Below are positions 60,603 to 62,104 of a DNA stretch of 64,000 nucleotides, piece after piece. The stretch is taken from assembly GCF_003334385.1 (NCBI RefSeq), contig NZ_QOWN01000001.1; one strand, written 5' to 3'. The notes beneath the pieces are model-generated. The model worked only from the letters and a program-made list of their open reading frames with translations, had not been told where the DNA came from and searched no databases. This DNA is from Escherichia coli (GTDB lineage: Bacteria; Pseudomonadota; Gammaproteobacteria; Enterobacterales; Enterobacteriaceae). Position numbers and translations under genes: made by a program. Position 1 is the stretch's first letter. Each line of letters opens with the position of its first letter.

Positions 60603-60965
60603 ATGTTTCTAAACTATTTCGCGTTGGGAGTGCTGATCTTCGTCTTTCTGGTGATTTTTTATGGAATCATCGCGATACATGACATCCCTTATCTGATTGC
60701 CAAAAAGCGCAACCATCCCCATGCCGACGCTATTCATACGGCGGGCTGGGTGAGCCTGTTTACTCTGCATGTTATCTGGCCGTTTCTGTGGATCTGGGCG
60801 ACGCTCTATCAACCGGAGCGTGGCTGGGGTATGCAGTCACATGTTGCGTCGCAGGAGAAAGCGACTGACCCGGAAATCGCCGCACTTTCTGACCGAATTT
60901 CCCGGCTGGAGCATCAACTCGCCGCCGAGAAAAAGACTGACTATTCCACGTTCCCGGAGATCTAA
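60603..60965 (+). CDS. yibI: Small inner membrane protein YibI (DUF3302-like), two predicted TM helices
   Basis: 120 aa, [40 protein letters not shown]; stop 2 nt before the yibH start. Confidence 0.85.
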
Positions 60966-60967
60966 TT

Positions 60968-62104
60968 ATGGATCTATTGATTGTTTTAACTTACGTGGCG
61001 CTGGCGTGGGCGGTCTTTAAAATCTTCCGCATTCCGGTAAATCAGTGGACGCTGGCGACGGCGGCGCTGGGAGGCGTGTTTCTGGTGAGTGGTTTGATTT
61101 TGTTGATGAACTACAACCACCCTTACACTTTTACCGCGCAAAAGGCAGTGATAGCGATCCCTATCACGCCACAGGTGACGGGAATTGTTACTGAAGTCAC
61201 TGACAAGAATAATCAGCTTATTCAAAAGGGCGAGGTGCTTTTTAAGCTCGACCCGGTTCGTTACCAGGCGCGAGTTGACAGACTTCAGGCTGACCTGATG
61301 ACGGCGACGCATAATATAAAGACGCTGCGTGCGCAGCTCACTGAAGCGCAGGCCAACACCACCCAGGTTTCAGCGGAGCGCGACCGTCTGTTTAAAAATT
61401 ATCAACGTTACTTGAAAGGCAGCCAGGCGGCGGTGAATCCGTTCTCGGAACGTGACATCGACGATGCGCGGCAAAATTTCCTCGCGCAGGATGCGCTGGT
61501 GAAAGGCTCGGTGGCGGAGCAGGCGCAGATCCAGAGCCAGCTCGACAGTATGGTTAACGGCGAGCAATCGCAGATTGTGAGCTTAAGAGCGCAACTTACT
61601 GAAGCAAAATATAACCTTGAGCAGACTGTCATTCGCGCGCCGAGCAATGGCTACGTTACTCAGGTACTGATCCGCCCAGGTACATACGCAGCTGCCTTGC
61701 CGCTGCGTCCGGTGATGGTCTTCATCCCCGAGCAAAAACGGCAAATTGTCGCCCAATTTCGGCAAAACTCGCTGTTACGTCTGAAACCCGGCGATGATGC
61801 GGAAGTGGTGTTTAACGCGCTACCTGGGCAGGTGTTTCACGGCAAACTGACTAGTATTTTACCTGTCGTGCCAGGCGGTTCTTATCAGGCGCAGGGGGTA
61901 TTGCAATCATTAACGGTCGTGCCCGGCACGGACGGTGTGCTGGGAACCATTGAACTGGACCCTAACGATGATATCGATGCCTTACCCGACGGCATCTACG
62001 CCCAGGTGGCGGTTTACTCCGACCATTTCAGCCATGTTTCGGTGATGCGGAAAGTGCTGCTAAGAATGACCAGCTGGATGCATTATCTTTATTTGGATCA
62101 TTGA
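60968..62104 (+). CDS. yibH: HlyD-family membrane fusion (periplasmic adaptor) protein YibH
   Basis: 378 aa; N-terminal TM helix, coiled-coil segment, beta-barrel-like C-terminus typical of periplasmic adaptor proteins. Confidence 0.85.

Follow-up and report, generated by a model that had tools for sequence, protein, structure and literature searches.

Tripartite envelope systems are classed by their inner-membrane transporter, which is of the resistance-nodulation-division (RND), ATP-binding cassette (ABC), major facilitator superfamily (MFS) or FUSC/PET type. What, then, is the role of a periplasmic adaptor whose gene adjoins that of a small membrane protein and no transporter gene? This question is raised by yibI and yibH, two same-strand genes in a 64,000-nt stretch of Escherichia coli DNA (NCBI RefSeq contig NZ_QOWN01000001.1), hereafter referred to as the window. 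A first-pass annotation made from the sequence alone had described a 120-aa protein with two transmembrane (TM) helices, followed 2 nt later by a 378-aa adaptor-like protein. Both open reading frames (ORFs) lie exactly where it had placed them. It had also remarked on the missing pump. Indeed, inspection of the window ORFs, GC content and annotation revealed no pump gene in the yibIH operon or its flanks, with mtlA upstream and AT-rich fragments downstream. The locus as such is known and annotated: in the record of a K-12-like chromosome (L001), to which the window DNA is 99.9% identical, RefSeq lists yibI as a DUF3302 domain-containing protein and yibH as a HlyD family secretion protein. What is new is the evidence that the lack of a pump is a trait conserved in a widespread module, composed of a DUF3302 protein, an adaptor and, in part of the lineages, an outer-membrane factor. 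The module has an adaptor and often a channel, and none of the transporters named above. It is found in Proteobacteria, Campylobacterota and Bacteroidota and occurs twice in E. coli K-12, with a highly conserved two-helix protein in the place of the transporter.

Pairing of the two genes and the missing pump

Clustering of 1.84 billion proteins at 50% identity yielded 819 representatives of the DUF3302 family. Loci encoding DUF3302 proteins were collected from four sources: a genome scan at species level, contigs on which distant members are encoded, a collection of annotated plasmids and chromids, and a scan of metagenomes that started from a distant subfamily. From the species-level scan the 80 loci nearest to the query were retained, all of which belong to Enterobacterales; the wider diversity came from the other three sources. 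Pairing was counted in the loci with enough downstream DNA, among approximately 130 loci overall. In the first set the DUF3302 gene is followed by a same-strand gene for a YibH-type adaptor at 79 of 79 loci, and 128 complete pairs were found in total, in agreement with the co-conservation that the first-pass annotation required. The intergenic gaps in about 128 related pairs are mostly between -8 and +16 nt. The sole exception to the pairing is found on a Microvirga plasmid, where the locus is cut by an IS element and the DUF3302 gene is followed by an IS5 transposase gene.

Among Alpha- and Gammaproteobacteria the pair is present in Enterobacterales, Aeromonas, Pseudoalteromonas, Rhizobium, Agrobacterium and Sinorhizobium. 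It is also found on Pantoea plasmids and in marine metagenomes, as well as in Nitratifractor (Campylobacterota) and in a metagenome-assembled genome of Reichenbachiella (Bacteroidota). Wherever the organism is named by the source, the DUF3302 family is found in double-membrane phyla, with one exception. This locus (L056) is labelled Chryseobacterium sp. 18061 and carries the full enterobacterial gene order (lldR, lldP, yibL, mtlR, mtlD, mtlA, yibI, yibH, yibF and so on); it is probably derived from a contaminant or a mislabelled assembly.

Across the approximately 130 loci, no transporter family was seen repeatedly beside the pair. The operons contain neither a FUSC nor a MacB-like gene at any of these loci, in which the unlabelled ORFs were not all scanned for MFS, RND and ABC transporters. 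Where annotation or Pfam labels were available, the immediate neighbours of the pair are unrelated to it and differ between lineages. An outer-membrane efflux protein (OEP) gene of the TolC-like family PF02321 is however frequent in the operon: among the non-enterobacterial loci that are informative on both sides, it occurs in 7 of 14 clusters defined at 75% identity and at 19 of 38 loci. It is located either before the DUF3302 gene or after the adaptor gene, the gaps ranging from -4 to +19 nt. A clean three-gene DUF3302-adaptor-OEP operon lies between housekeeping genes in Nitratifractor and on a hydrothermal-vent contig. Since the pump gene is missing in every lineage examined and the OEP gene is frequent, the absence of the pump looks like a property of the system and not of this particular locus.

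Two other candidates were considered among the neighbouring genes. The reductive dehalogenase and NosR/NapH-like genes found upstream in one metagenomic clade were rejected: they are 318 nt away and reflect lineage synteny, with no partnership. An ORF of 755-767 aa is located directly 3′ of the adaptor gene at three loci of one metagenomic clade (L112, 3196-5463; L128, 7319-9622; L104, 1572-2402), and before the DUF3302 gene on the opposite strand in L094 (3-1865). It has no Pfam or NCBIfam match.

Of 5426 complete E. coli genomes, 5407 have the locus, and more than 99% retain the two ORFs intact. The ratios of nonsynonymous to synonymous substitution rates (dN/dS) relative to E. whittamii are 0.039 for yibI and 0.034 for yibH. 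Thus yibI and yibH are real core genes under strong purifying selection. In a few E. coli genomes the match covers no more than the first 18% of the query, a sign of possible deletions, and in strain RM10410 (NZ_CP042350.1, 4194303-4197852) yibI is split by an IS421 (IS4-like) element. At 74 loci of other Enterobacterales the usual gene order is mtlA, yibI, yibH, yibF, selA, selB, yiaY, aldB, yiaW, yiaV, yiaU, yiaT, where mtlA and yiaU are oriented opposite to yibI, yibH, yibF, yiaW, yiaV and yiaT. The order mtlA-yibI-yibH-yibF, with mtlA divergent, is the ancestral enterobacterial one. Among the Enterobacterales loci compared, an rhs island separates yibH from yibF only in E. coli and in a few Citrobacter strains. 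Moreover, in some E. coli genomes the match stops at window position 62105, one base past the yibH stop codon. The direct succession of yibH and yibF in most relatives, together with this end point, shows that the pair is core and that the rhs island was inserted beside it; the island adjoins the yibIH system and is no part of it. The first-pass annotation, which had placed the pair at the edge of an accessory region, was thus right about the boundary of the rhsA island, but the pair itself belongs to the core genome.

The whole module has a paralogue, yiaW-yiaV, located at 37620-39085 of L001. It lies 17 kb away on the same chromosome, about 17 kb past the window end. YibI and YiaW are 75% identical; YibH and YiaV are 77% identical, with the same length and no gaps. 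The neighbours of yiaW-yiaV are yiaU, encoding a LysR-type regulator (LpsR), and yiaT, encoding a protein of the MipA/OmpV family. A third copy of the module, adjoining a yiaU-like LysR gene, is found in some Citrobacter genomes (L061, L063).

Architecture of YibH and YibI

Pfam searches matched YibH to CusB_dom_1, HlyD_D23, Biotin_lipoyl_2 and HlyD_3. It reaches none of the NCBIfam equivalog cut-offs for EmrA/EmrK (TIGR00998, 113.5 bits against 390.8), MdtN (NF007785, 110.9 against 376) or AaeA (NF007850, 75.1 against 400), and the single model whose cut-off it exceeds is the generic one for the RND_mfp subfamily, TIGR01730 (99.9 bits against 94.9). Among solved structures, E. coli EmrA is the closest to it in sequence (8zar, E = 1.7e-11, phmmer against the PDB). 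The best Foldseek matches are EmrA chains in EmrAB-TolC (E = 2.7e-20, template modelling score normalised on the target 0.64, 312-362 columns aligned), followed by MacA, AcrA and MexA (E = 1e-15 to 1e-10). In the AlphaFold2 (AF2) model, predicted local distance difference test (pLDDT) values for the adaptor body are 80-95; the hairpin helices are flanked by strands, and there is no extra domain between the β-barrel and the C-terminal helix. Together, the Pfam domains and the fold matches to EmrA confirm the adaptor fold of YibH that the first-pass annotation had proposed; the coiled-coil segment it had noticed corresponds to the α-helical hairpin. Neither YibH nor YiaV nor any protein of the DUF3302 family has a solved structure in the PDB copy searched. 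A reading of the pair as an anti-phage defence system, prompted by the rhs neighbourhood, was rejected, as PADLOC-DB gave no match to YibI and only coiled-coil-level matches to YibH (E about 0.005).

YibH possesses the features of the HlyD family (TC 8.A.1), namely a lipoyl-like domain split by an α-hairpin, and a β-barrel. Known adaptors carry one anchor helix or a lipid anchor. YibH departs from this usual arrangement by a variant anchor, in which two hydrophobic segments form an N-terminal membrane hairpin. Two such segments were found in 60 of 60 non-redundant adaptors partnered with DUF3302, as against one in the AaeA-like adaptors encoded on the same contigs. Conservation was measured as the mean frequency of the top residue in an alignment of 26 diverse yibI-yibH-type pairs (alignment A3). 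The inter-helix loop of the YibH anchor ([11 protein letters not shown]) scores 0.83; it is predicted to face the cytoplasm from the positive-inside rule and from the necessity for the adaptor body to be periplasmic. By contrast, the α-hairpin is the least conserved region of YibH (0.34-0.36). Its tip, a putative docking site for TolC, aligns with the hairpin tip of EmrA in the sequence match. A second departure from the canonical adaptor is found at the C-terminus, where the last 24 residues make up a conserved amphipathic helix with R361, R366 and W370 invariant in alignment A3. The length of the hairpin insert falls into three classes across loci L076-L172, of approximately 61, 123 and 178 aa, in steps of about 55-62 aa. 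E. coli YibH belongs to the 123-aa class, and OEP genes in cis were seen with the 61- and 178-aa classes.

Residues 3-78 of YibI match Pfam DUF3302 (PF11742, E = 3.3e-41, model positions 1-76 of 77), and YibI has no NCBIfam match. As the first-pass annotation had stated, it is a DUF3302 protein with two hydrophobic helices, so that both domains for which that annotation had suggested profile searches, DUF3302 and HlyD_3, were matched. The AF2 model of YibI alone is a helical hairpin (helices 2-35 and 41-68; pLDDT 94-97 over residues 1-70), followed by a poorly ordered linker and a third helix (90-113). The loop between the TM helices is the most conserved stretch of the pair, with P29, A33, H38, P39 and A43 invariant. 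TM helix 2 is conserved at 0.86; W49, S51, W59, P60 and W65 are invariant and H56 nearly so. The C-terminal helix is variable in sequence and keeps a heptad-like L/R/L pattern. The positive-inside rule predicts a cytoplasmic loop and a periplasmic tail. In both proteins, conservation is strongest in the membrane segments and the predicted cytoplasmic loops, and weakest in the YibI tail (0.29) and the adaptor hairpin.

No significant structural analogue of the YibI model was found by Foldseek against the PDB. The best fold matches, which are not significant (E = 2.7, probability 0.25), are to PorL/GldL, the two-helix subunits of the proton-driven motor of type IX secretion. A profile search of PDB sequences gave only a weak likeness to rhodopsin TM helices (E = 0.0025). 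Homology of YibI to AaeX was considered and rejected: the only Pfam family matched is DUF3302, with no DUF1656 match at E ≤ 10, and the likeness is architectural.

A proposed conduit without a transporter, and the alternatives

We propose, with a probability of about one half, that YibI and YibH are obligate partners in a module of the inner membrane and periplasm that operates together with TolC, the DUF3302 protein being the membrane partner. YibH would act as an EmrA-like adaptor, with lipoyl domain, α-hairpin and β-barrel and lacking a membrane-proximal domain, anchored by its two-helix membrane hairpin. YibI would be its cognate partner in the membrane, in place of an RND, MFS, ABC or FUSC transporter. 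The α-hairpin of YibH would dock an outer-membrane factor, provided in trans by TolC in E. coli and by an operon-encoded TolC-like protein in many lineages. The resulting assembly would provide a conduit across the envelope for export or efflux. Physical contact between YibI and YibH, the stoichiometry of the complex, the membrane sidedness and the use of TolC in E. coli are presumed in this model. The obligate pairing, the co-duplication that gave yiaW-yiaV, the adaptor fold, the linkage to OEP genes, the lack of pump genes in the operons, the membrane signature and the purifying selection all argue for it. A more far-reaching version is tentative, and we hold it to be rather unlikely. In that version DUF3302, hairpin adaptor and outer-membrane factor would constitute a distinct class of tripartite machine, with two copies in E. 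coli K-12, in which a two-TM oligomer and the adaptor hairpins replace the transporter, and a conserved His/Asp cluster drives transport or gating, for example by the proton-motive force. The residues concerned are H26, D27, H38, H40, D42, H45 and H56 at the predicted cytoplasmic face of YibI, and it is speculative that they couple protons or bind substrate. If the pair were self-sufficient, it would exemplify a new principle for building or energising a conduit through the envelope, and would give yibI, yibH, yiaW and yiaV a testable role.

Several observations weigh against the proposed module. No energy-coupling element is evident in the 120-aa, two-helix YibI, and we know of no precedent for a tripartite system without a transporter. 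A fused YibI-(GGGGS)6-YibH construct was modelled with AF2 from 26 paired sequences, following the structure prediction that the first-pass annotation had recommended. The resulting predicted template modelling score of 0.49 is uninformative on contact, and the pLDDT of YibI dropped to 62-76, compared to 94-97 for the protein alone. In the loci sampled, an OEP gene in cis never accompanies modules of the E. coli type (hairpin of about 123 aa), so the involvement of TolC in E. coli is extrapolated. In one OEP-linked lineage, a gene for a MacB-type permease lies about 0.8 kb upstream. At nine metagenomic loci (L086, 10716-11933; L093, L095, L098, L131, L143, L149, L150 and L152), the OEP gene is followed at a distance of 0-104 nt by a gene for a K+/H+ antiporter-like protein of about 400-413 aa, of the cation:proton antiporter (CPA) type and below the NCBIfam cut-off. 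With these two genes nearby, a conventional partner is possible. The antiporter-like gene was nevertheless rejected as a general partner, as it recurs only in related lineages. Finally, yibH has served as a neutral integration site with no reported harm (PMC5852967).

The strongest competitor, which we regard as possible but doubtful, is that YibH serves, as an ordinary adaptor, a pump whose gene lies at another site, such as one of the adaptor-less FUSC/PET proteins of E. coli, or an MFS or ABC transporter. YibI would then be a small accessory or modulatory subunit with a role comparable to that of AaeX or AcrZ. The nearest relatives of YibH, namely EmrA, MdtN and AaeA, serve real transporters, and a 120-aa two-helix protein is unlikely to be an energised transporter by itself. 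The MacB-type permease and the antiporter-like genes also fit this explanation. So does the finding, in two metagenomic lineages (L086, 957-5851; L098), of a complete FUSC-OEP-DUF1656-AaeA-like operon 2-3 kb from the DUF3302-adaptor-OEP operon. However, the adjoining FUSC operons have adaptor, outer-membrane factor and DUF1656 genes of their own, and opposite-strand genes, including a DUF2092 gene, separate them from the DUF3302 operons. Thus the FUSC-type and DUF3302-type architectures coexist as separate systems. In addition, the approximately 130 loci cover several phyla without a recurring transporter family, whereas the OEP gene recurs in half of the lineages, and the pair travels alone on plasmids and chromids. 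The strongest conservation is found in the YibH membrane hairpin and the membrane parts of YibI, which is unexpected of a mere anchor and an accessory protein. To our knowledge, the genes for the other adaptors of E. coli adjoin those for their pumps, which also counts against a pump in trans. Were a pump borrowed in this way, YibH would be an unusual adaptor, unlinked from its transporter throughout evolution. In a further, improbable explanation, the pair would be a structural, tethering or stress complex of the envelope that reuses the adaptor fold independently of TolC in E. coli. This would accord with the lack of OEP genes beside modules with a 123-aa hairpin, with the proximity of yiaWV to the envelope-related genes yiaU and yiaT, and with diffuse phenotypes (urine fitness and adhesion, Klebsiella phage plaques, Ca2+-mediated transformation upon loss of yiaW). 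It is difficult to reconcile with the OEP genes found in the operons of many lineages in both gene orders, with the structural resemblance of YibH to EmrA docked to TolC above all other structures, and with the confinement of the family to double-membrane phyla where the organism is named, apart from the locus that appears mislabelled. As to gene decay, the position at the edge of the rhs island, the IS421 insertion in one strain and the use of yibH as a neutral site could evoke the remnants of an efflux operon that lost its pump when the island was inserted. This explanation is effectively refuted by the intactness of both ORFs and the dN/dS values of about 0.03-0.04. Moreover, in species devoid of the island yibF directly follows yibH with no pump gene, and the pump-less pair extends across phyla.

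In the searchable literature, only screen-level phenotypes are available for yibI, yibH, yiaV and yiaW, with no mechanism or assigned function, as the first-pass annotation had anticipated, and DUF3302 is named only incidentally. A 2024 survey of the y-ome lists yibH and yibI among uncharacterised genes (PMC11551758), and yiaV is entered as "uncharacterized" under TCDB 8.A.1.1.4 (PMC10971958). In uropathogenic E. coli the yibI promoter is induced in urine, and a yibI deletion mutant loses in competition there (competitive index 0.33) and shows lower adhesion (PMC5404293). In a screen of transporter knockouts, the yibH mutant was among the 15 most azithromycin-sensitive strains according to the running text on Table 3, the caption of which says ornidazole (PMC9405208). 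Evolved phages showed reduced plaque formation on Klebsiella pneumoniae when yibH was mutated or deleted (PMC11796411). A macrophage-evolved clone acquired an IS1 insertion in yiaW, which by itself had no phenotype (PMC5495878), and deletion of yiaW is cited in PMC12844161 as increasing the efficiency of Ca2+-mediated transformation. Although weak, the azithromycin sensitivity and the urine fitness defect would fit a role in the envelope or in efflux.

Gene structure, flanking DNA and related systems

The features of the locus are listed in the table below. The genes yibI and yibH are joined by a TAA-tt-ATG junction, and the geometry of the two genes suggests that their translation is coupled. 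The predicted yibIH promoter must be located in the intergenic region between yibI and the divergent mtlA (58153..60066), which is followed by mtlD and mtlR; a promoter consensus scan of this region returned weak promoter-like sites only. The longest ORF over mtlD starts about 106 codons upstream of the annotated start. It runs across the gap between mtlA and mtlD (57925-58152, minus strand), which contains a repetitive stretch resembling repetitive extragenic palindromic elements, whose translation is rich in repeated R/G/P motifs. On the other side, the GC content falls from about 0.53 to 0.27-0.38 right after the yibH stop codon. The island DNA there comprises a frameshifted Imm57 immunity pseudogene, RHS C-terminal fragments and yibG, with yibA and rhsA beyond. 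An Rfam search detected no RNA elements in 59900-64000.

Features of the yibI-yibH locus, in window coordinates
Feature	Position	Strand	Description and basis
Divergent mtlA-yibI intergenic region	60067..60602	.	ORF map; GC about 0.39-0.41
Shine-Dalgarno-like GAGG for yibI	60594..60597	+	5 nt 5′ of the yibI ATG; read from the sequence
yibI coding sequence	60603..60965	+	120 aa, DUF3302 protein; RefSeq name yibI
YibI TM helix 1, aa 3-25	60609..60677	+	Hydropathy; AF2 helix 2-26
YibI conserved loop [20 protein letters not shown], aa 26-46	60678..60740	+	Top-residue frequency 0.88, 26 diverse pairs
YibI TM helix 2, aa 47-68	60741..60806	+	Alignments A1 and A3; AF2 helix 41-68
YibI C-terminal amphipathic helix, aa 90-113	60870..60941	+	AF2, pLDDT 88-93; conservation 0.29
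Shine-Dalgarno GGAG for yibH	60956..60959	+	Within the yibI 3′ end, 8 nt 5′ of the ATG; read from the sequence
yibH coding sequence	60968..62104	+	378 aa, periplasmic adaptor of the EmrA/MdtN/AaeA-like group; RefSeq name yibH
YibH N-terminal TM hairpin, aa 1-50	60968..61117	+	Hydrophobic segments 1-24 and 27-49; AF2 helices 1-19 and 28-50
YibH α-helical hairpin, aa 97-218	61256..61621	+	AF2 helices 97-152, 161-197 and 202-218
YibH amphipathic C-terminal helix, aa 355-378, RKxLLRMxSWxxYL	62030..62101	+	AF2 helix 355-374; hydrophobic moment
AT-rich rhsA-associated island, start	62105..64000 (L001 21806-23702)	.	GC drop; annotation of the 99.9%-identical K-12-like record

One of the known systems close to YibIH is its own paralogue. 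YiaW-YiaV (TCDB 8.A.1.1.4) is a true paralogue of the whole module, with the same gene order and a 5-nt gap. It differs in having aldB upstream and the yiaU regulator and yiaT outer-membrane protein genes downstream, and in the length of YiaW, which is 107 aa long with a shorter tail. The MacA and AcrA/MexA adaptors of ABC- and RND-type pumps share the adaptor fold with YibH. They also possess a membrane-proximal domain, are anchored by a lipid or a single helix, and serve pumps with large periplasmic domains; YibH does not show such features.

The first-pass annotation had likened the pair to AaeX-AaeA. In the AaeX-AaeA-AaeB system, as in YdhIJK and MdtNOP, which are likewise of the FUSC/PET type, a small two-helix protein is also encoded directly upstream of a short EmrA-like adaptor. 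Outside E. coli, FUSC/PET systems may include an OEP gene in the operon (FUSC-OEP-DUF1656-adaptor in L086), as do some DUF3302 operons. The resemblance holds for this architecture but does not extend to the protein families: yibIH has DUF3302 in place of DUF1656 and no FUSC gene, and YibH scores higher with the EmrA/EmrK and MdtN models than with that of AaeA (75 bits against a cut-off of 400). Moreover, AaeA-like adaptors have one hydrophobic segment and YibH-type adaptors two.

The best match to YibH in both sequence and fold is EmrA of the EmrAB-TolC system (PDB 8zal, 8zar; Aquifex EmrA, 4tko). EmrA and YibH are of similar size (390 and 378 aa) and are both built from a lipoyl domain, a long α-hairpin and a β-barrel; EmrA, too, has no membrane-proximal domain. 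EmrA has a single N-terminal TM helix and is encoded beside the MFS pump EmrB. Unlike EmrA, YibH combines a conserved two-helix membrane hairpin with an amphipathic C-terminal helix, and its gene is accompanied by that of a DUF3302 protein in the absence of any pump gene.

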